In this document: positions 9,817 through 20,699 of the stretch, piece by piece
How positions within the stretch are numbered: position 1 is the first letter of the stretch
Layout of the letters: the number at the start of each line of letters is the position of its first letter
Source: Candidatus Borrarchaeum weybense
GTDB lineage: Archaea; Asgardarchaeota; Sifarchaeia; Borrarchaeales; Borrarchaeaceae
Length of the DNA stretch: 64,000 nucleotides
Direction of reading: 5' to 3'
Assembly (NCBI GenBank): GCA_019057385.1
Contig: JAHQJS010000006.1
Location: 805,038 to 869,037, forward strand
Translations under genes and position numbers: made by a program
Notes under the pieces: model-generated
Told to the model about the DNA's origin: nothing
Seen by the model: only the letters and a program-made list of their open reading frames with translations
Databases searched by the model: none

Positions 9817-11574
9817 ATGAATTTCGAAGAAGGTCTCATATTGAAAACTGATGGCCATGAAACACTGATTAACTTTATTAGGCGCACGCTACTGAAAAAA
9901 GAGCATGTCATCCTCGCAACTATTTTGGCTGTAAATTTTGCATTGAGACTTTATGGCGTCATTGTTAATGTAGACCATTTTTTTCGTGAAGCTACTTTCG
10001 GCATGGCTGCATGGAGGATAGTTGACGGTGATCTTCCTTACCGTGATTTTTTTCACGCACAAGCTCCGCTTTCCCCTTATTTACTTGCTTTCGTTTTCCT
10101 TATGTTTGGAGTCGGCATTCTTCAAGCAAGGTTATTCTTGGTATTCTTTACAACCTTTACATGTTTTATGATCTTCATGGCAGGAAAAAGGATTGATTAC
10201 AAAACGGGATTGTTAGGAAGTTTGATTTTTGCAATAACCCCCCTTTCCGTTAAGTATGGCATGAATGCAGTGAATGATTTTATTGCAATGACTTTCTGTG
10301 CCATAGGATATTATTTTCTGACATCTGTCATTATGATTAACGAGAATAAAAAGAATTTGACAGCTGAAAGAAATAATTCAATTTTGGCCGGACTCTTTAT
10401 GAGTATAGGAGTTATGATCAAACTCATTGTTGCACCAATATTATTTGCCTTTATCGTTATTTTAATAATTGAAGGCATATTTTCTGAATTTGAAATTAAA
10501 AATCAGGTAAAAAAGATTTTTTTCCTTATAGTTGGATTCGTAATTCCTTTTCTAGTTGTATTTTCTTCTTTTTATCTTCTGTTCGGCGACAATTTCACTG
10601 CACAAGTTTTGGGACAACATTTGGCAAAAAAGCCAGTATCTTATGGAGAGCGTTGGAATAAACTGATGTCTCGCCTGATCATAGTAAATCCTTATTTTTT
10701 CGTATTATTTAGTTTAAGTGTTCTGTTTGCAGCACGGCAACCTTACGGACGCGGTTTAATCATTTGTTTTCTTTGCATGATATTAGCGGTATTTACTTTT
10801 GTTCCATCACAGAATACCAATTACTATCAAATTAACATCCTAATTATGTCCATGGTCTGCGGTTTTTTTCCCCTACCCGATTTCAAAGCATTAAATTTTA
10901 AATCACTGATCCCAAATTTTATAGTTATTTTGAATTTGTTGTTATATAAAATATATCGCTATTCGAACTCTAATGTAGCAGGATTTGCTTATTTTGAGCA
11001 TTATTTGGCAAAGGTAGCCCTTGCAGCAACTTTAATCACCTTAATCGCATTTATTGTAATTTTAACAAAAGAAAAGCAAATTACTGAATTGAAAATTAGC
11101 GATCGAGCAAAAAAACTTCTTTCTTCCCCTTACCAAGTTTTAAAAGGCTTAAAAAACGTTCTTAATAAGGACGTAACAAAGTTGGTCCTTGCATCAGCCT
11201 TAATTGTTATAATCGCGACAACTGGTGTTTCATATCCCAGTCTTTCTGAAAGTGATAAGAAAACTATCGAATGGATTAAAGCAAATACGTCTCCTGACGA
11301 TTATGTTCTTGCTGACGACTTAAAAATCAATTTTCGGGCAAAAAGAAGAAGCCCATTTGCTGAAATTTCAACACCGAGAACACGTTTTGGTGAACTTACT
11401 GGAGAAATGTTTATTGAAGCTTGCTATGAGTTTGATATTAGAGTCGTTGTGAAAACAAGAAGGCTGTTTGACTCCTTTGATACATACGATGTCTTCCTGG
11501 AATTTCTTGAAATTAACTATGTTCCAATTAAAGAAGGTCACATAATCTATGTGCGCACAACACCTCTAAAATGA
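9817..11574 (+). CDS. GT-C membrane glycosyltransferase (ArnT/PMT_2-like), copy 1
   Basis: Polytopic; GDLPYRDFFHAQAPL motif; soluble C-terminal WIKANT.PDDYVL domain. Confidence 0.75.
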   Translation: MNFEEGLILKTDGHETLINFIRRTLLKKEHVILATILAVNFALRLYGVIVNVDHFFREATFGMAAWRIVDGDLPYRDFFHAQAPLSPYLLAFVFLMFGVGILQARLFLVFFTTFTCFMIFMAGKRIDYKTGLLGSLIFAITPLSVKYGMNAVNDFIAMTFCAIGYYFLTSVIMINENKKNLTAERNNSILAGLFMSIGVMIKLIVAPILFAFIVILIIEGIFSEFEIKNQVKKIFFLIVGFVIPFLVVFSSFYLLFGDNFTAQVLGQHLAKKPVSYGERWNKLMSRLIIVNPYFFVLFSLSVLFAARQPYGRGLIICFLCMILAVFTFVPSQNTNYYQINILIMSMVCGFFPLPDFKALNFKSLIPNFIVILNLLLYKIYRYSNSNVAGFAYFEHYLAKVALAATLITLIAFIVILTKEKQITELKISDRAKKLLSSPYQVLKGLKNVLNKDVTKLVLASALIVIIATTGVSYPSLSESDKKTIEWIKANTSPDDYVLADDLKINFRAKRRSPFAEISTPRTRFGELTGEMFIEACYEFDIRVVVKTRRLFDSFDTYDVFLEFLEINYVPIKEGHIIYVRTTPLK

Positions 11575-11870
11575 AAACTAAAACATAAAGTGGAAGCTCT
11601 GATGATGAAATTTGAGTTACTGAAAAAAGAGCATGCTGTGCTCGTAATTATTTTATTTTTAAATTTTGCATTGAGACTTTATGGTGTCATTGTTGATGTC
11701 GACTATTTTTTTCGTGAAGCTACTTTCGGCATGGCTGCATGGAGGATAGTTGACGGTGATCTTCCTTACCGTGATTTTTTTCACGCACAAGCTCCGCTTT
11801 CCCCTTATTTACTTGCTTTCGTTTTCCTTATGTTTGGAGTCGGCATTCTTCAAGCAAGGTTATTCTTGGT
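9977..11870 (+). repeat. 166-bp identical segment shared by the two GT genes (9977-10142 = 11705-11870)
   Basis: Base-by-base comparison, offset 1728. Confidence 0.9.
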
Positions 11871-13332
11871 TTTTTTTACAACCGTTACATGTTTTATGAT
11901 CTTCATGGCAGGAAAAAGGATTAATTACAAAACGGGATTGTTGGGATGCCTAATTTTCGCAGTAGTTCATTTATCTGTTATGAATGGCATGGTGGCTGTT
12001 AATGATTTCATTGCCGTGACCTTCTGTATTGTTGGATACTATTTTTTAACACCCGTCATCATGGGGAACAGGTACAAAGGGGAATTTCTTGCTAATCGAA
12101 ACTGCGCATTTTTGGCTGGAGTTTTTTTAAGTATCGGAGTAACGATCAAAATCATAATTGCACCAATATTGCTCGCCTTCATTGTTGTTTTGGTCATAGA
12201 AGGACAATTTGCAGGAGTTAGAATCAATGAACAGGCTAAAGACCTTGCTTTTCTTCTTCTTGGGTTTATAATTCCTTTTTTAGTTGTGTTTTCGCCTTTC
12301 TATTTAATAGTTGGTAACAAAATTACACTGCAAGTATTGGGGCAACATTTAGAGAAGCCTTTTGTGTCATGGGGAACGCGTTGGAATAGTCTAACGAAAT
12401 ACATAATTAGGGAAAATCTCTATTTTTTCGTTTTCTTCTCACTAAGTGCTCTTTTCGGGGCACGAAAACCATATGGAAGAGGGCTACTCATTTGCACTCT
12501 ATTCATGTTATTCAGCGTATTCCTGTTTGTTCCACGACAACAAGCAAATTACTACTATTTAAGCGTTCCATTGATGGCCATGGTTTGCGGTTTCTTTCCC
12601 TTATCAGATTTTAAATCGTTTAATTTAAGATCAACGCTTTTGAGTGTTATTGTTTTCTTTGGTTTCATTATTCTAAACTTCACCATTTTTATCCGATTTT
12701 ATCGTCCTCGTTTTTATTTTCCAGTTCTATCATTGCCTTTTTATAGTTATTCAAGCTATTATTGGATACAGTTAACTTTTGTAGCGTTTTTTATTGCTTT
12801 ATGTGTCTTTATCGTTTTTTTAATCAAAGAAGGACAATTTGATGGACTTAAAATTACGGATTCGGTGAAAGATATATTTTCTTCCCGTCACCAGATCTTT
12901 AAGAGTCTAAGAGGTATTCTTAGTTATGATGGGGTAAAACTCGCTCTTGTAGTGTTCTTTGTTGTGCTAATCACAGTGTGTAATGTAACATATCCCCGTC
13001 TTTCTGCAAAAGATAGAAAAGCAATTGATTGGGTTAAAGTAAACACTTCTCCCGATGAGTATATCCTTGCTGATAATTTGAAAATAAATTTTAGGTCAGG
13101 AAGGAGGTCCGCATTTGCTGAGATTTCAAGAGAGCGAACGCATATTGGCGAACTTACTGGAGAAATGTTTATCCAAGCATGTTATGATTTTGATGTTAGA
13201 GTCGTTGTAAACACAGGATTTCTTTTTGGAAAAGACGATACCTATGATGTTTTCATAGAGTTTCTTGAAGATAACTATGCTCAAATCGAAGTAGGTCACA
13301 CAATCTACGTACGTGCCACTTCCTTGCAATGA
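11590..13332 (+). CDS. GT-C membrane glycosyltransferase (ArnT/PMT_2-like), copy 2
   Basis: Tandem paralog of 9817..11574 with the same motifs. Confidence 0.75.
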   Translation: MEALMMKFELLKKEHAVLVIILFLNFALRLYGVIVDVDYFFREATFGMAAWRIVDGDLPYRDFFHAQAPLSPYLLAFVFLMFGVGILQARLFLVFFTTVTCFMIFMAGKRINYKTGLLGCLIFAVVHLSVMNGMVAVNDFIAVTFCIVGYYFLTPVIMGNRYKGEFLANRNCAFLAGVFLSIGVTIKIIIAPILLAFIVVLVIEGQFAGVRINEQAKDLAFLLLGFIIPFLVVFSPFYLIVGNKITLQVLGQHLEKPFVSWGTRWNSLTKYIIRENLYFFVFFSLSALFGARKPYGRGLLICTLFMLFSVFLFVPRQQANYYYLSVPLMAMVCGFFPLSDFKSFNLRSTLLSVIVFFGFIILNFTIFIRFYRPRFYFPVLSLPFYSYSSYYWIQLTFVAFFIALCVFIVFLIKEGQFDGLKITDSVKDIFSSRHQIFKSLRGILSYDGVKLALVVFFVVLITVCNVTYPRLSAKDRKAIDWVKVNTSPDEYILADNLKINFRSGRRSAFAEISRERTHIGELTGEMFIQACYDFDVRVVVNTGFLFGKDDTYDVFIEFLEDNYAQIEVGHTIYVRATSLQ

Positions 13333-14021: not shown

Positions 14022-14891
14022 ATGCCTGAGATAATTTCAAAATTTTTGTCAATCATCGAAACAAGCAGACCGATTATTTGGCTTTTTGCAGTTGGAACGG
14101 CATTTTGTGGAATGCTCATGGCATTGAAAAGCATTCCACCTGTCTTTGAGTTTCTGCTAATGTGCATAGCGATGATTTCTGCAACTTTTTCTGCTAATCT
14201 GGTTAATGCTGCAACTGATGTCGAAGTTGACAAAATTAATAAGCCTAATCGACCGCTTCCTGAAGGCCGAGTAACTGTTCATGAGGCTTTTATGATAGGA
14301 ATCTTTTGTCTAATATTAACTTTAATTATCTCTTTTCTATTTGGAATTGTACCTTTCCTAATTGCTATAGTCGGTCTAACTTTTGCTGTAATTTATTCTG
14401 TTCCACCAATTGCCCTGAAGGAGCGGGGAATTCTAGCTAATATTGCACTGGCATTCAGCTACAGTACACTCATTTTCCTTTGGGGCTGGGCAATAGTTGC
14501 GCCGCTTATCTTAGAATTAACTGTTATCATAATATTGATCTTTCTGCTTATTCAGATCACTGGCGCAAACATAATAAAAGATTTAGTAGACTTTGAAGGT
14601 GATCTTATAAGTAGACGAACGGTTCCAGGTCAATTGGGATTGAAAAAGACAATAATAGTTATTGCACCATTTATGGTAGGGCTTTATTTTCTTATTCCTG
14701 TATTATGGTTGTTCAAAGTTTTTTCATGGCATTATTTACCGATTTCCTTAATGTCGCTATGGGGTATCGCTATAATAGTTTTTTTGTATAAGAACCCATC
14801 AAAGGATCGGCGAATTAAAGCCTTTCTCCACGCTTTTTTCATGTCTTTGTTATCCGAGTTTTTATTTGCTGGTGTCTATGTCCTAAGCTAA
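14022..14891 (+). CDS. UbiA-family prenyltransferase
   Basis: NAATDVEVDKINKPNRPLPEG, YSVPP, KDLVDFEGD motifs; multi-TM. Confidence 0.85.
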   Translation: MPEIISKFLSIIETSRPIIWLFAVGTAFCGMLMALKSIPPVFEFLLMCIAMISATFSANLVNAATDVEVDKINKPNRPLPEGRVTVHEAFMIGIFCLILTLIISFLFGIVPFLIAIVGLTFAVIYSVPPIALKERGILANIALAFSYSTLIFLWGWAIVAPLILELTVIIILIFLLIQITGANIIKDLVDFEGDLISRRTVPGQLGLKKTIIVIAPFMVGLYFLIPVLWLFKVFSWHYLPISLMSLWGIAIIVFLYKNPSKDRRIKAFLHAFFMSLLSEFLFAGVYVLS

Positions 14892-15039
14892 GGTTTTTCT
14901 TAAAATAAAGTCTAAGAAAGTCTGAACTCAAAGCTAGTTTAGAAAAATGTTAACTAACTTCCGATGCAAATTGAAGGTCCGCAATACTTGTATCTTTTGA
15001 TCTACTAACTTTAATTGAATGGCTAGGTCCTTCATAGAA

Positions 15040-16086
15040 TCACCCCAAGGAGACTCCCCTGTTTACCGAGGAGAGGAATTGCGTTCTAAAGGATATCTTT
15101 GTGAGGATGTGACAATCTTCTTTTTTACCGCTTTGTGTAAGTCTTTTTCCAGTTCTTACACAATGTAAACTTAACCGATTGTTCAGATTTCCGCCCACAT
15201 AACATAAACCATGCTTTTTGTGGCATATTAAGGTGCCGCGTTTTAGCCCTAATGAGATTGCCCCGCCGTACCTCTTTCGTATGCCGCCTTGTGAAAACTG
15301 CAGCCGGTGTAACTGTCATCGGTGAAATCGTATCGGTTCTACATAATAGAGGCCGGTTGTAGAAGGATTTTTCGCCCCTGTTATGGCGGCGGCCATTACC
15401 CAAGCATCTACACAATGCGTTTCAAACGCCACCTTTGATTTGTTTGGTGATTTCTTCAGTCCAAAGGCCTCCCGTAATTGTTTGGTTTCGTGGCCTTGCA
15501 TGGTGATGAGGATGAGCCCTAGTTTTTCTAGTTCTGCATAAAAATAGTGTTTACCAACTTCCAGCGGACTGAAATTGCGATTCCAGCCTCGCTGATTTTT
15601 CCGTGTTGTTGCCTTGACATCCTCGCTCACTGCGTATTGTAAGGGCAGGATTTTACACAACTGACGGACAAGTCGCAACTTTGCGTCCCATCTCGCCTTT
15701 GTTGAGGGTGGTAAAAACGTTTTATTATTCCGCCTGTTCTTCTTAGATTTTCTTCGGCGGTTTTTTCTATATCTTCGTACTCTACGCATAATTTTACGCT
15801 GTGCTACTGCCTTTTTTACCCAGTCCACCGCTTTTGACATCAGGTTAAGCACCGTGTCCTCTATTCCGACGACTGAAAACCCCTCGAATTTCGTGCCGGG
15901 ATCTATACCTATTGCTAGTGGCTGTGTGACGGGATGGTTGGGATCGAACTCTAATTGGAGGTAAAATATGCCCAATTTATTACGTTTCTTAATGGCTTTT
16001 CTTTGTTCGAGAAGTTTCCTCGCCTTTGTCGGTCTGCACGGCATTAGTGGTATTCCGCTTTTGCTAACGACAGGAATTCTACCGAT
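15040..16086 (-). pseudogene. isrB: IsrB (HNH-less IscB homolog) with an in-frame TGA at 15316-15318
   Basis: PLMP, RuvC-I IGIDPG, Arg-rich bridge helix, RuvC-II SEDV, RuvC-III THCVDA, no HNH; after RFHR*(TGA) the frame continues QLHRLQFSQGGIRKRYGG...GVSLG* to 15040; no ATG before PLMP (ATC at 16086 after GGGAG). Confidence 0.85.
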
Positions 16087-16326
16087 TGCGGTCTCCCTGC
16101 CCGAGTCGAGTATCCCTTCGCCAATGCCAAGTAGGCTTAGCCTCTTGAGATGAGAGACATGACATTCAGTGGTTCTGTCGAAGAGGAGGGGACTAGGGAG
16201 GCATCCCCGACATTCTTGTAGCCCACAAGGCGTAGTTCTTGAAGTATTTCTTCTGAACTTAGGCTAGTCAAGACTTGTATTGCTACCACCATCACAAGCC
16301 CCGTCCTTCAGGGCGGGGTTCTTGAC
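16087..16326 (-). ncRNA. omegaRNA (HEARO-like) scaffold of the IsrB element
   Basis: GTCAA start, TTGACTAGCCT, GGGATGCCTCCCTAGTCCC, TTGGCGAAGGG motifs directly upstream of isrB. Confidence 0.8.
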
Positions 16327-16605
16327 CTGTTTGTGTATGTGTGATAAGAAAGATCTGATTGAACTAACATAGAGCAAAATATCATTAAGAATTCCACAGT
16401 CCTGTTGTCTTAAAAATTTTTGTTGATAAAGCATTCTTTTAAAAGGAATATACTTCCTTTGACCCTACATAGTCTATTTTCGCTTAAGGTCAAAGGCAAA
16501 AACTTAGTGAAATACAAATGAATATGCGCCTACAATTGTGCTTAGATTAAAATCAGAAAGTGTTTTATCCCTTTACATTTCAATTCTCTATGTGCTAAGA
16601 TCTTC

Positions 16606-19167
16606 TTAATTTGTAAGTTGAAGATCAACTATGCTTCTATCTGTTCCTCTAGTAACCGTGATTGTGTGGCCAGTGTCTTTAATTGTTTGTGTATGTGTGA
16701 TAAGGAAGATTTGATCGAAGGATTTATTATTCATCAATGCGCTTAATACGCCTTCTCTTCTTTCCGTGTCTAAACTTCCAAGAGGTTCATCTAAAATGAT
16801 TGTTTTAAAATAGATAGGATGTAAACCAGATGAACGAAATGGACGTATATGCCCCATCAATTCTGAGATACCCATTCGTAATGCTAATCCGAGTGCAGCC
16901 TTATCACCACCACTAAGCATGTCTTTATCTTTTTCAAGTCCGTCGACCAAATCGGTAAGTGTTATTGATACACCGTGAGTCTTCCCATGCTTAGTAATCA
17001 AGATCTCATTCATCTTATATTGTCCGTAAGTAAATTGCTGCAGATATTTCGAAACGACACTACGTAATGATTTGAAAAGTTTGTTTTGAATAACTTCTTG
17101 AGAGATAAATTGCTCTAAATATGGTTTAATTAGCACATCATGATGCTTAATAGTTGATTCTTCTTGTCGTATTCGTTTTTCAATGTCGTCTAATTTATTT
17201 ATTTCATCCAATAGTTTATTTAAGCGAATAGTTTCTTCATTAATGTCTTTTTTAAGAGAATTGTATTGGTTAAGTTTCTCTTTCTTTTCTTGAAATAAAA
17301 CTTGAATAGCAGTAATCATATCTTGCAACTTTGTAGCTTTAAATCTCTCTAGTAATCCATTAATGGTATCAACACTTAATTTATTCAAAAGATCCTGTTT
17401 CTGGCTTTCATTTTTTATTTTTTCATTTACTATAATTTCCTGTTCCTGCAAAAGTTTCTGAATTCGATCCTCTTTTTCTTGTATCTTTAATGTTAATCTA
17501 CCGATGTCTGTATTAAATTCTTCCAAACGATCCTTTTTTGATGTAAATTCATTTTTAATGCGTCCAATACTCTCGCTAAGTTCACTTATGTCGCTAATAT
17601 TATATTTAGTTAATAAATCCTCATAAGATGAGACTTCAAATGACTTTAAAAGTCGAGAAACTTCAGTTTCAAGATCTGATAAATTATGGTCTATTTGTTG
17701 GGTTCGTGTTAAACAGTGTGAAATGTTTTCAAGTTTTGAAGAATTCTGTCTAATAATCTCTAAGTTCTCTTTCATGGCACGCATTGAAGTTTCATTTTCT
17801 TGTACAAGTTTTACTAATCGATTGATTTCGTTAGTATAATTCAAGATATCTTTTTCGATTCTCTGAACAACTTCATCCAATTCTTCTTCATCATGGAATG
17901 GAGTGAAACAAGTAGGACAGTCTCCCTTTTCTTTAAGTAATTCTATATTAGATTTTAAACTGGAAATCACACCTCTTTTAGTATTTATTGTTCCCAAGAG
18001 ATCCTTTATCTTTTGTTCGATTTCTGTGAGTGATTTCTGTGCCGTCTCTTCATTATTTTGGAGCGTTTCTCTTTGTATTTTTTCATATTCTATTCTCTGT
18101 TCTAAGGTTTGAGGAAAATCAAAACCAGAACTCGATTTGATAAACTCATCGTCCAGACTTTTAATTTGCTCTGTCAGATTTAGTCGCTTGCTAATCAAAT
18201 TTATCAAAGCAGTAACGCTTTCCAGTGTTGGTAGACTCTTAATCTTTTTTTCAAGAGTTTGAAATTCTTTTTCTTCTTTAGAAAGAGTGTGTTTCTCCTT
18301 TTCTAATTCATTACGATCGTCTTTTAGAATATCATTGAGTATGGAGATTTCTTTTGAGTAACCTTCAACTTGATTTGATGCATTTTTAATTTGCTCGTTT
18401 AATGTTTCTATATTTTGGATATCTTCAATTGTTGGATACTTAACAAGTTTATCATCTAAATGCTGAATAACTTGCTCTAAATTCAATTTATCTTCATTTA
18501 ATTTTTCAATATCCTTTTTAAGTTCAGGTAACAATTCCATTTTTCCTTCAATTCTACTTTTTTCACTCATTAAATCTTGTTGCAGAGTAATATGTTCTTC
18601 TCTCATTTCTTTTAGTTCTTCTTTGATAAGATCAAATTGATCAAGTTGAAATAGTTCTTGAATTTTATTACGAAGTTCTGAGCCGCTTACATTTGCTAGA
18701 TAGTCAATTTCACCTTGACGAACAAAAAATGTGCTGTCCAGTTGTTTCCCATCGCAGTTCATAACAGATTCTAACTTCTTACAAACTGCTTTAGAACCTG
18801 AAATCGGATTGATTAATTGATTTTTCTGATTGTAATCATATATCGTTGCTATTGTCGGTTTGCCACGTGTTTTTTCACGTTTAATTCTATATCTTGCATT
18901 CCCTACTTGAACATCCAATTGTACTTTGCATTTTGCTGCATCTTTTTTAATTAATCGATCTTTTAACTCGTCAATTACTCCACAATCCCTCTTTGATCCC
19001 CACAATCCCCACAAAATCGCTTCGATAAGGCTAGATTTTCCAGATGAATTTCGACCTCTTATTGTGTATAGACCATTTGGCAATTCTGATACATTTGCCG
19101 TTTTGTCTGGTAATTCTAACCTTGAAAATGGTTTAAAATTTTCTACTACAATCGATGAGATCTTCAT
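16606..19167 (-). CDS. rad50: DNA double-strand-break repair ATPase Rad50
   Basis: Walker A GRNSSGKS, Q-loop VRQGE, coiled coils, central CPTC zinc hook, LSGG signature, LDEPLGSLD, LITH. Confidence 0.93.
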   Translation of the reverse strand: MKISSIVVENFKPFSRLELPDKTANVSELPNGLYTIRGRNSSGKSSLIEAILWGLWGSKRDCGVIDELKDRLIKKDAAKCKVQLDVQVGNARYRIKREKTRGKPTIATIYDYNQKNQLINPISGSKAVCKKLESVMNCDGKQLDSTFFVRQGEIDYLANVSGSELRNKIQELFQLDQFDLIKEELKEMREEHITLQQDLMSEKSRIEGKMELLPELKKDIEKLNEDKLNLEQVIQHLDDKLVKYPTIEDIQNIETLNEQIKNASNQVEGYSKEISILNDILKDDRNELEKEKHTLSKEEKEFQTLEKKIKSLPTLESVTALINLISKRLNLTEQIKSLDDEFIKSSSGFDFPQTLEQRIEYEKIQRETLQNNEETAQKSLTEIEQKIKDLLGTINTKRGVISSLKSNIELLKEKGDCPTCFTPFHDEEELDEVVQRIEKDILNYTNEINRLVKLVQENETSMRAMKENLEIIRQNSSKLENISHCLTRTQQIDHNLSDLETEVSRLLKSFEVSSYEDLLTKYNISDISELSESIGRIKNEFTSKKDRLEEFNTDIGRLTLKIQEKEDRIQKLLQEQEIIVNEKIKNESQKQDLLNKLSVDTINGLLERFKATKLQDMITAIQVLFQEKKEKLNQYNSLKKDINEETIRLNKLLDEINKLDDIEKRIRQEESTIKHHDVLIKPYLEQFISQEVIQNKLFKSLRSVVSKYLQQFTYGQYKMNEILITKHGKTHGVSITLTDLVDGLEKDKDMLSGGDKAALGLALRMGISELMGHIRPFRSSGLHPIYFKTIILDEPLGSLDTERREGVLSALMNNKSFDQIFLITHTQTIKDTGHTITVTRGTDRSIVDLQLTN

Positions 19168-19224
19168 TAAGATCGCCTCTGGAGCCTCTTTCCTTTTAAG
19201 CTGGAGAGGAAAGAGGTGCAGAAA

Positions 19225-20427
19225 CTAACATAACGTGAATAATAACCCTTTTCCATATTTTACCAACTTAACGTTTTTAATTGCAATACTTGGATTTTTC
19301 CCTTTAGGATTTTCTAACACAACGCGCTTTCCAAGACAATGAACTCCTTTTACTCTATAGATTTTATTGTTATATTTTACAAGGTCATACGGTTGTAATT
19401 TGTATATCTGTCTCCTAATTGATGGCTTAAACCCTTTTCTATTCTTCTGTAGCGAACGATTATTTCTTCTGATTTGCTTGACCTTATACCGTCGGCAGCG
19501 TTCTTGATTGCTTCCACCAGCAATGACAAACGCATCGCTAACATGCGACTTTTCTAGCCCTAGTTTGGTACGCTGATATTTAGTAACGTATCCGTAGGTA
19601 TGCTCTGCCCCTAACTGCTCAACTATCCTCCAACGGAAAATATTCAAACATGTAGGTGCTTTAAGTGGTTGATTTGCCTGGTGCTGGATGGTAGAATAGC
19701 CAAACTCCTCAGCGGTCTGATTTCCCTTCTTTACATTACAAGTTCTACATGAGATTGTCAAATTAGACACTCGATCTGACCCACCTCTGCTTTTAGGAAT
19801 AATATGCTCGACTTCTAAAGGGATATCCTTTTTACCACAATAAGCACATGTTCGCCCCCACTTGTCTAACAGGTATTCCTTGACTTCGTAACCCTGAAGT
19901 TCACCCTGCTGATATGCTATGCCTGTAATTTCTGGCTGCTGCATTTTTTGAGTGTCGAAATTGGCTACTTCTACCCTTTTGTAGGTTATCGGTAGTATTG
20001 TTTCAAGCTTCGCAACTAATCTAATATGTGAATCTAATCTATGTTGATTACTAGGTGCTAACCATCCTTTAGGTCTTGTTCGGTTATTAAATCGAGGTGA
20101 TCTATACCCTAATCTTCTTCTACGGGCTTTGCGATACATCCGTCGTTCTTCTAGTTTTTGAGGCATATCTTTCCGAAGTGTTACTGTCCCACTTATGAGC
20201 TCTAACTTGTCGTTTTTGGCACTAAAACCGATGTTCGTATATCCGAGGTCCACTCCAAGTGTAATCGGTTGCCTAGTTTCTCCGGTGGAATAGTTCAACT
20301 GAATGGTAAAAGGGCATCTCTGAACAACGTGTGCCTTGCCGTCTCGTAGTAATTTCTTTCCTTTGGGTTGTGTAGTAGGCATGAGAGGTTGCCCTCTCAT
20401 GTTCAACACATAGATAGGTACTCTCAA
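19225..20427 (-). CDS. iscB: RNA-guided endonuclease IscB, apparently intact
   Basis: PLMP, RuvC-I LGVDLG, bridge helix RRMYRKARRRR, RuvC-II VEVANFD, HNH CAYC..EHIIPKSRGGSDRVSNL..C..CN, RuvC-III SHVSDA. Confidence 0.95.
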   Translation of the reverse strand: MRVPIYVLNMRGQPLMPTTQPKGKKLLRDGKAHVVQRCPFTIQLNYSTGETRQPITLGVDLGYTNIGFSAKNDKLELISGTVTLRKDMPQKLEERRMYRKARRRRLGYRSPRFNNRTRPKGWLAPSNQHRLDSHIRLVAKLETILPITYKRVEVANFDTQKMQQPEITGIAYQQGELQGYEVKEYLLDKWGRTCAYCGKKDIPLEVEHIIPKSRGGSDRVSNLTISCRTCNVKKGNQTAEEFGYSTIQHQANQPLKAPTCLNIFRWRIVEQLGAEHTYGYVTKYQRTKLGLEKSHVSDAFVIAGGSNQERCRRYKVKQIRRNNRSLQKNRKGFKPSIRRQIYKLQPYDLVKYNNKIYRVKGVHCLGKRVVLENPKGKNPSIAIKNVKLVKYGKGLLFTLC

Positions 20428-20699
20428 GTCCTATCTCCTCCTTTAAATTGCTTTAAAGTCGGTTGGTTCTCTTCGCCAAGGTTATCAGTCAGTACTCTAC
20501 GATGATCACTGAGAGTTTCCTCTCTGTTTAAACCACCGTTTACAGAGCAAGGGACTAGAGAAGCATCCCGTGGTGTGTTCTTTAACTCTCCTGATAACAT
20601 AGATATCGTCATAAACTATATGACCTCTCTTAGGCTAATCAACTAATTGCTCTTACTCCTCACGGAATAAGCCCCTACCTTTTGGGTGGGGTATTTGAC
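20428..20699 (-). ncRNA. omegaRNA (HEARO) scaffold of the IscB element
   Basis: GTCAA 5' hairpin, GTTGATTAGCCT, GGGATGCTTCTCTAGTCCC, TGGCGAAGAG motifs upstream of iscB. Confidence 0.85.

Follow-up and report, generated by a model that had tools for sequence, protein, structure and literature searches.

The repair operon of the Asgard archaeon Candidatus Borrarchaeum weybense carries an IsrB element of the IS200/IS605 type beside the 3′ end of rad50. We analyzed this locus within a stretch of 64,000 nucleotides (GenBank assembly GCA_019057385.1, contig JAHQJS010000006.1, positions 805,038 to 869,037 of the forward strand), hereafter the window, whose first letter is position 1. Names given to close homologues in the databases ('Promethearchaeota', 'Ca. 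Sifarchaeia') likewise point to the Asgard archaea. On its minus strand lie the repair genes herA (23721-21973), mre11 (21973-20675) and the live rad50 (16606..19167). The open reading frame (ORF) of the latter encodes 853 residues with Pfam matches to AAA_23, SMC_N and the zinc hook, its C-terminal 264 residues are 90-94% identical to those of relatives, and it ends in a replacement tail, IKDTGHTITVTRGTDRSIVDLQLTN. Beyond this tail come a spacer, a short piece of an older rad50 end, the IsrB element and the remainder of that older end. We hold with good confidence that IsrB lies in the old 3′ end of rad50 and that the gene has been kept whole by a 356-bp patch with a divergent tail that lacks the target-adjacent motif (TAM).

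The genome under study (G000) was compared with three genomes of the same genus (G001, G003, and G004), with protein clusters of types P0001-P0014, of which P0013 and P0014 served as outgroups, with metagenome contigs from the Joint Genome Institute (JGI), among them L080, and with the empty-site alleles L081 (P0005) and L087. A separate NCBI assembly, GCA_019058535.1 (L088), was also included. All checks of the locus were made on the minus strand, on which the features described below lie unless stated otherwise.

The IsrB element spans 1291 bp (15036..16326) and has no tnpA. Its ends were placed using paralogues, the empty sites of G003 and G004, and a 90%-identical copy at another locus; the genome has three full paralogues, at 67-71% identity, plus a single end fragment, and similarity among these copies is confined to the stretch between 16326 (GTCAAG...) and 15036 (...GATTCT). 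A composite transposon that includes the patch was considered and rejected, since the similarity among paralogues begins exactly at GTCAA. The omegaRNA scaffold (16105..16326) matches the HEARO family (RF02033) in Rfam over the full model length with 80.1 bits (E = 3.5e-15), which falls just below the gathering score of 83; paralogues of the IsrB type reach 56-98 bits, and the scaffold is 95.9% identical to its copy in G001. As expected of IsrB systems, this HEARO-type RNA lies upstream of isrB with the guide 5′ of the scaffold. The isrB coding region (15040..16080) matches Pfam RRXRR (2.4e-34), and its translation contains the N-terminal PLMP motif and a split RuvC domain with the catalytic D, E and H/D residues, in the motifs IGIDPG, SEDVK, and HCVDA. 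Pfam searches gave no HNH family match in isrB; those of the neighboring IscB (19225-20427) gave HNH, HNH_4, and HNH_5. The intact IsrB of L080 aligns over residues 1-294 with DtIsrB of Desulfovirgula thermocuniculi (PDB 8DMB; E = 2e-51). The RRXRR domain without HNH, the PLMP and RuvC motifs and the match of this intact orthologue to DtIsrB identify the element as IsrB.

A putative TAM, ATGAA (15031..15035), abuts the element end. The 3′ flanks of five related copies read ATGAA in three cases, ATGGA in one and TTGAA in one, which points to an NTGA-type motif 3′ of the target. For comparison, the TAM of DtIsrB is NTGA, and published IsrB uses a 20-nt guide and nicks 8-11 nt upstream of the TAM (PMC9581776).

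The flanks of the element are two pieces of an older rad50 end. Its 5′ piece, which we call R2, was delimited by alignment to 37 nt (16327..16363) and is at the same time the guide region of the omegaRNA; directly 5′ of it are a TAG stop and non-rad50 sequence. On the other side of the element, an open frame of 86 nt (14950..15035) encodes the relic tail DEGPSHSIKVSRSKDTSIADLQFASEVS and its stop codon. When 16363-16327 is joined to 15035-14950, the result is a single open frame, FNQIFLITHTQT-DEGPSHSIKVSRSKDTSIADLQFASEVS-stop. This bears out the original prediction, made from the letters of the window alone, that the two flanks rejoin in frame as a homologue of the Rad50 C-terminus, and a tail of the same type is present in G003, G004, and nine protein clusters.

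Several lines of evidence concern the authenticity and ancestry of this relic. In both G003 and G004, rad50 is uninterrupted and reads ACACAAACAG followed by ATGAAGG and a tail of the DEG type, with a UbiA gene directly downstream; these tails differ from the relic by one to three residues, and, by a hand count of four differences, the relic tail and the live G003 tail share about 95% of their nucleotides. More broadly, the relic tail is identical or nearly so to the live tails of P0004-P0012, G003, and G004. Nine protein clusters (85-91% identity) carry the relic-type DEG tail and three carry the IKD tail of the live gene; the junction is conserved in both outgroups, as GATGAA in P0013 and AATGAA in P0014. 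The alignment of Rad50 C-termini that had been proposed alongside the original prediction thus answers in favor of the DEG type: it is the majority type, it is present at all empty sites, and its junction is kept in both outgroups, which supports the relic as an authentic Rad50 C-terminus of the ancestral type. Relic and live tails alike continue the H-loop block, are homologous to the terminal strands and fit TH-x(6-8)-[PH][ST]I-x-V-x-[KR], a pattern read off related Rad50 tails, which the live tail shares with tails from across the phylum. Past the junction the relic tail shares 10 of 23 residues with the live tail IKDTGHTITVTRGTDRSIVDLQL, the same count as first reported. The insertion itself is scarless, with no target duplication relative to the empty sites of G003 and G004 (...ACAG-ATGAA...), and it severs the last 28 codons of the original rad50. 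A rad50 truncated by the bare insertion would read through to end in THTQTGQEPRPEGRGL.

On contig L080 (11215-11480), the relic tail extends into a longer, P0014-like end (ESRRAEDVL). There it is followed by a repeat of about 77 nt, of which G000 has around 20 copies, often paired about 1.1 kb apart, and then by a UbiA allele that is only 81-83% identical to the UbiA alleles of the genus.

The live gene appears to have acquired its end from elsewhere. A repeat search identified R1 (16684..16719), the block of live rad50 that encodes the H-loop (FDQIFLITHTQT), as the upstream copy of a 36-nt repeat. R1 (16719-16684) and R2 (16363-16328) match at 33 of 36 nt with a spacing of 356; the mismatches fall at repeat positions 4, 9, and 15, and 21 identical nucleotides follow. 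This 21-mer occurs exactly twice in the window and in none of 100 shuffles. The reported match, including its contiguous 21 nt, was therefore reproduced, with one correction to the earlier coordinates: the last flank base is the G at 16327, so that R2 with this base is 37 nt long. Immediately after R1, alignment with the empty-site alleles places the replacement tail (16606..16683), 25 codons and a stop that start ATTAAA, and the live gene reads ...ACAA-TTAAA where the empty sites read ...ACAG-ATGAA, as originally described. The live gene is about 91% identical to the empty-site alleles through ACACAAACA and roughly 60% identical, by eye, beyond it.

The live tail shows affinity to an outgroup. 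In a hand count, 13-14 of its 23 residues are also those of P0013, compared with 10 of 23 for the relic type. A breakpoint scan of rad50, another check proposed earlier, showed that this affinity continues upstream: four unique outgroup-like sites of G000 lie at -120 to -90 from the junction, out of seven such sites in the last 900 nt, a clustering with a chance probability of about 0.004 by a rough binomial estimate. In G001, comparison with the nearly identical P0005 revealed six differences at -62 to -30, two of which equal the state of both outgroups. Since both lineages that carry the patch and the element (together, the cassette) have clustered outgroup-like sites in the 120 nt before the junction, the data support the live tail as a genuine but divergent Rad50 tail that was recombined from a divergent allele, as the original prediction had proposed.

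The remainder of the patch is a spacer of 242 nt (16364..16605) that contains a hairpin. In sequence searches, this spacer resembled nothing in the DNA that follows the relic, and the genome yielded no second full copy of it. A promoter-like segment of 56 nt within it (16460-16405) holds the TATA-like TTTTTAAG about 70 nt before the omegaRNA scaffold and is 89% identical to the region directly upstream (C4:964390-964445) of a gene for a 524-residue XRE-HTH protein (C4:962818-964389); it may mark the gene that follows rad50 in the donor lineage. A common promoter motif was rejected as an explanation for this segment, given that the genome has just two occurrences of its 23-nt core. The segment has weaker copies in G004 and G001.

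The arrangement has consequences for what the element would target. According to published work, guides of the IscB type are encoded beyond the end of the transposon and depend on external transcription; the TAM is common to the nuclease and TnpA, and the element is restored when the empty site is cut. Here the guide is the last 20 nt of R2, and, as read from the strings, the rad50 alleles of G003, G004, P0011, and P0008 offer a 20/20 match followed by ATGAA. The live gene matches at 19 of 20 positions, which are the last 19 nt of R1: the mismatch is TAM-proximal, and TTAAA replaces ATGAA (TTAA vs. NTGA). Since the TAM has lost its TGA core and the base next to it has changed as well, the patched allele is predicted to be immune, and loaded IsrB should nick the empty-site alleles and spare the patched gene. 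The claim that a near-self-targeting guide persists 356 bp from its target thus stands as regards the near-match and the spacing; it needs qualification as regards the nuclease, the gene for which appears to have been broken very recently in G000 and is intact in relatives. Two empty-site alleles, L081 (P0005) and L087, have synonymous TAM-proximal changes in the protospacer (ACA to ACG at -6 and ACA to ACC at -1, respectively), which could reflect chance or escape from targeting. Of the genome's 36 omegaRNA loci, the one at rad50 is alone in having a second copy of its guide beside a gene. A further omegaRNA is immediately preceded by a perfect tandem duplication of 28 nt (C6:781536-781603), in a non-coding flank; considered as a second case of guide duplication, this sequence was rejected as a plain tandem repeat.

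The history of isrB itself was traced through its copies. In G000, the coding region contains an in-frame TGA (15318-15316). The same codon is CGA in GCA_019058535.1, where the ORF has no stop, and AGG in G001; isrB is intact both there and in L080. A single C-to-T change accounts for the stop, and its absence from the 99.88%-identical assembly and from G001 suggests a private change that is either very recent or a sequencing error. Between G000 and G001, isrB has a synonymous divergence (dS) of 0.271 and a ratio of nonsynonymous to synonymous divergence (dN/dS) of 0.14, which shows purifying selection on isrB for most of the lifetime of the cassette. The IsrB family is mobile, with copies 86-90% identical to that of the rad50 locus lying at other loci in related genomes; the close homologues checked for location (P0034-P0037) were all elsewhere than rad50. 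No Y1 TnpA is encoded within the element and the sole Y1_Tnp gene found in the genome lies at C7:194221-194586, so mobilization would be in trans. In total, the genome has 36 HEARO matches, 16 RRXRR frames, and this one Y1 transposase gene.

G001 and all IsrB paralogues have an isrB frame that runs uninterrupted across some 210 nt of the omegaRNA scaffold and includes an ATG some 30 nt into it, giving ORFs of 410-450 residues; the paralogues read in this way are C8:111881-113149, C6:253512-254782, and C4:509730-510955. A 1-nt deletion in the G000 lineage breaks this scaffold-spanning extension (16077-16295), and the assignment of the start codon is therefore ambiguous.

The arrangement is real and not an artefact of assembly. 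A chimera of two strains had been named as the finding that would overturn the prediction, and two circumstances could be cited for it, namely 7% marker contamination in the genome and the breakage of short-read contigs of a related population inside the spacer. However, the locus is contiguous in three other assemblies. GCA_019058535.1 matches it without gaps across IscB, rad50, patch, R2, IsrB, and relic, with 6 mismatches in 4926 nt (99.88%); a second species of the genus, G001, is built alike at 92.6% identity, with IsrB intact; and L080 shows this architecture too and continues into UbiA. G001 and L080, whose IsrB sequences are identical, probably represent a single population. The join of live tail and spacer is also confirmed by three more metagenome contigs, which then break inside the spacer. 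A chimera can accordingly be dismissed as next to impossible.

The cassette is old and unevenly distributed. The rad50 core of G000 and G001 has a dS of 0.335, and the closeness of the isrB value to it indicates that the age of the cassette is close to that of the sampled genus. The IKD type is found at two positions in a Rad50 core tree, whose well-supported branches require a minimum of two changes. G001, which has the cassette, and P0005, which has an empty site, differ at only 14 of 2484 core positions (dS 0.016), and the final 207 nt contain 7 of these 14. On L080, which was read for the G001 lineage, the tail end and UbiA farther downstream reach only 81-85% identity with any of the other sequences compared. 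P0011 shares its last ~620 nt with both G001 and P0005 and could be either donor or recipient, so that gain in G001 and loss in P0005 are indistinguishable. Populations resembling G001 and P0005 occur together at sites sampled by JGI (3300009150 and 3300009488). By these patterns, the locus is a long-lived presence/absence polymorphism reshuffled by homologous recombination.

We infer the following route. The IsrB/omegaRNA element would have inserted in the original rad50 3′ end, immediately 5′ of ATGAA on the coding strand. A patch beginning inside the conserved H-loop block would then have brought a divergent Rad50 tail from another lineage and, after it, the downstream intergenic DNA of the donor with its promoter-like segment. 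It would have closed at an illegitimate joint (16364/16363), 36-37 nt upstream of the element, leaving the scrap of old rad50 (R2) in place as the guide. Homology-facilitated illegitimate recombination would be the most economical route: a single homologous crossover within rad50, 120 nt or more upstream, together with one illegitimate joint. The foreign tract may later have been eroded by recombination with native alleles, down to the last identical block. As to order, we lean toward insertion followed by rescue, by a modest degree of preference, because it explains the retention of the patch, which restores a truncated Rad50.

Several points weigh against this account. Neither intermediate was found, that is, rad50 interrupted by IsrB without the patch or the patch without IsrB, and the order of events therefore remains a matter of inference. 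A donor with the IKD tail and spacer in their native context was not found among relatives, JGI metagenome contigs or short protein fragments; the search of the JGI contigs returned five loci, all of types already known. All three R2-specific bases lie in the 5′ 15 nt of R2, a pattern that would also fit a single reciprocal crossover with a small circle or a frozen polymorphism. Nicking, TAM preference and immunity are predictions for the G000-type IsrB orthologue. The G000 isrB has, besides its in-frame TGA, an upstream part that is shifted in frame relative to G001, and no present activity is expected from this copy alone. R2 has one change in 37 nt against about 2.6 expected, a difference that is not significant and from which we claim no selection.

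The same observations bear on several rival histories. The reverse order is distinctly less likely, although it is the strongest competitor: a foreign rad50 3′ fragment would have recombined by chance, leaving a neutral relic of 123 nt, and IsrB would later have entered the only ATGAA within it. The upstream reach of the foreign tract beyond R1 in two lineages is compatible with this order, as the sharp breakpoint may simply mark the end of the H-loop block, and a dead relic would be a safe landing site for a family that is mobile and has 86-90% copies at other loci in relatives. Yet such a history requires two independent rare events at one nucleotide, the first without selection, and the patch without IsrB is seen in no resolvable IKD lineage. 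The restriction of the R2-specific bases to the 5′ 15 nt is what a single reciprocal crossover predicts, and could hence signal the remnant of a site-specific integrative element with its own rad50 3′ end (Campbell-type integration at the 36-nt core), mostly deleted before IsrB arrived. We regard this as improbable: only 320 bp and no integrase lie between the repeats, the foreign tract extends upstream of the repeat, the coincidence of the core end with the IS insertion point would be chance, and no relative with a longer, integrase-bearing insert between R1 and R2 was found. Slightly less credible still is tandem duplication in situ of the rad50 3′ end and downstream DNA, with rapid divergence of the upstream copy. 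It would account for a direct repeat with 356-nt spacing, but the diverged copy would be the live one under selection, and the IKD tail and upstream patches share states with outgroups; we rejected it because nothing in the spacer detectably resembles the DNA that follows the relic.

A further possibility extends the favored reading, insertion followed by rescue, instead of opposing it. The whole 1.65-kb unit (16683-15036), comprising the immune tail, terminator/promoter spacer, guide, omegaRNA, and isrB, might be a natural home-and-rescue drive; we think this rather unlikely, if well above the duplication and integrative-remnant models. The architecture fits a scheme in which IsrB would nick empty-site rad50 and repair from a cassette-bearing chromosome would copy rescue tail and element together, and the empty-site alleles retain a perfect guide match and TAM. 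The synonymous near-TAM changes in P0005 (-6) and L087 (-1), the polyphyly of the cassette on the rad50 core tree with its minimum of two changes, the low core dS of 0.016 between G001 and P0005 with differences clustered beside the cassette, the purifying selection on isrB, and the published cut-and-copy and gene-drive behavior of IS200/IS605 nucleases can all be cited in its favor. Copying of the cassette as a unit is no more than suggested by tree incongruence and flank mosaics. However, ordinary homologous recombination among strains explains the same incongruence, and the difference between G001 and P0005 may as well be a loss in the latter. IsrB is moreover a nickase, a patch of this kind is absent from the genome's other 35 omegaRNA loci, and neither DNA exchange nor polyploidy is established for these archaea.

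The element type and its homing logic are already known. Like the DtIsrB system (PDB 8DMB; HEARO RF02033), the rad50-locus element combines a PLMP/RRXRR N-terminus, a split RuvC and no HNH in a core of about 350 residues with an upstream HEARO-type RNA, a guide encoded outside the element end and an ATGAA flank that fits the NTGA TAM. It differs in its Asgard host, in a frame open through the omegaRNA scaffold (410-450 residues) and in the stop codon of the G000 copy, and its activity is predicted. As in known homing elements of the IS200/IS605 type, the insertion is scarless next to a TAM, the guide records the site, the empty allele is the predicted target and the element is co-oriented with the upstream gene. 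Unlike in those elements, a replacement end without the TAM has mended the interrupted host gene in cis, a near-match to the guide 356 bp away is predicted to remain uncut, and a dedicated promoter may lie between gene and guide. This cis repair of the host gene, with guide, nuclease, and relic all retained, appears to be undescribed in the literature searched.

Other systems share parts of the layout. Some integrative elements supply a replacement 3′ end of their target gene, as e14 and phage 21 do in icd, and as do tRNA-targeting elements. The rad50 locus resembles such cases in that its live gene has exchanged its 3′ end, a direct repeat is present, and the original end survives farther downstream as a displaced relic; it differs in that there is no integrase, only 320 bp separate the repeats, and the mobile element sits inside the relic and not between the repeats. 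In engineered home-and-rescue or recoded-rescue homing drives, a nuclease and guide lie in a gene beside a recoded, cleavage-immune end, and the wild type keeps the target. The layout at rad50 is alike, with nuclease and guide beside an immune coding end and the target kept in wild-type alleles, but its origin is natural and apparently accidental, its enzyme is a nickase and drive behavior here is hypothetical. As for the route of repair, homology-facilitated illegitimate recombination integrates foreign DNA through one homologous anchor and one illegitimate joint (PMC3240628). The foreign tract at this locus likewise starts inside rad50 and ends at a novel joint, although that process was described in bacteria.

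The operon also carries a second OMEGA element, in agreement with the claim that it was targeted twice. An intact IscB element (19168..20699), with a protein of 400 residues that matches RRXRR and HNH in Pfam and an omegaRNA that matches HEARO in Rfam (20699-20462; 124.7 bits), is inserted between GAAGC and ATGAA. This point corresponds to the overlap of the mre11 TGA and the rad50 ATG seen in G001, G003, and G004, and it likewise adjoins an ATGAA: through the insertion, Mre11 is extended by seven residues (SNTPPKR) and the rad50 ATG comes to stand at the end of the element, with the ATGAA of rad50 as the flank motif. The IscB element occurs only in G000 and GCA_019058535.1; it is not present in the G001, G003, G004, and P0001 contigs.

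Downstream of the relic, a convergent gene of the UbiA family (14022..14891, plus strand) was identified by profile match and synteny; it is the downstream neighbor of rad50 at all empty sites. Farther on, two adjacent paralogous ORFs of 585 and 580 residues (9817-13332, plus strand) have cross-matching copies in relatives at 63-86% identity. On one outgroup contig, this neighborhood has a single PMT_2-like gene of 574 residues, on the rad50 strand.

IsrB, IscB, and TnpB are thought to persist by cutting empty sites and copying themselves back, and the natural consequences for host genes are poorly documented. The rad50 locus records a full episode of this kind in an Asgard archaeon: a hit, a repaired allele, and a sequence change predicted to confer immunity. 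As the empty-site, patched, and outgroup alleles are all in public data, the predicted specificity (nicking of ...ACAG-ATGAA and sparing of ...ACAA-TTAAA) is directly testable. The layout matches that of engineered, resistance-proof gene drives and would be a natural precedent for them if the whole unit homes; in that event, an RNA-guided transposon could persist inside a DNA-repair gene and move between Asgard lineages. On the evidence of these alleles, a host gene may escape an OMEGA element through loss of the TAM while keeping the element.

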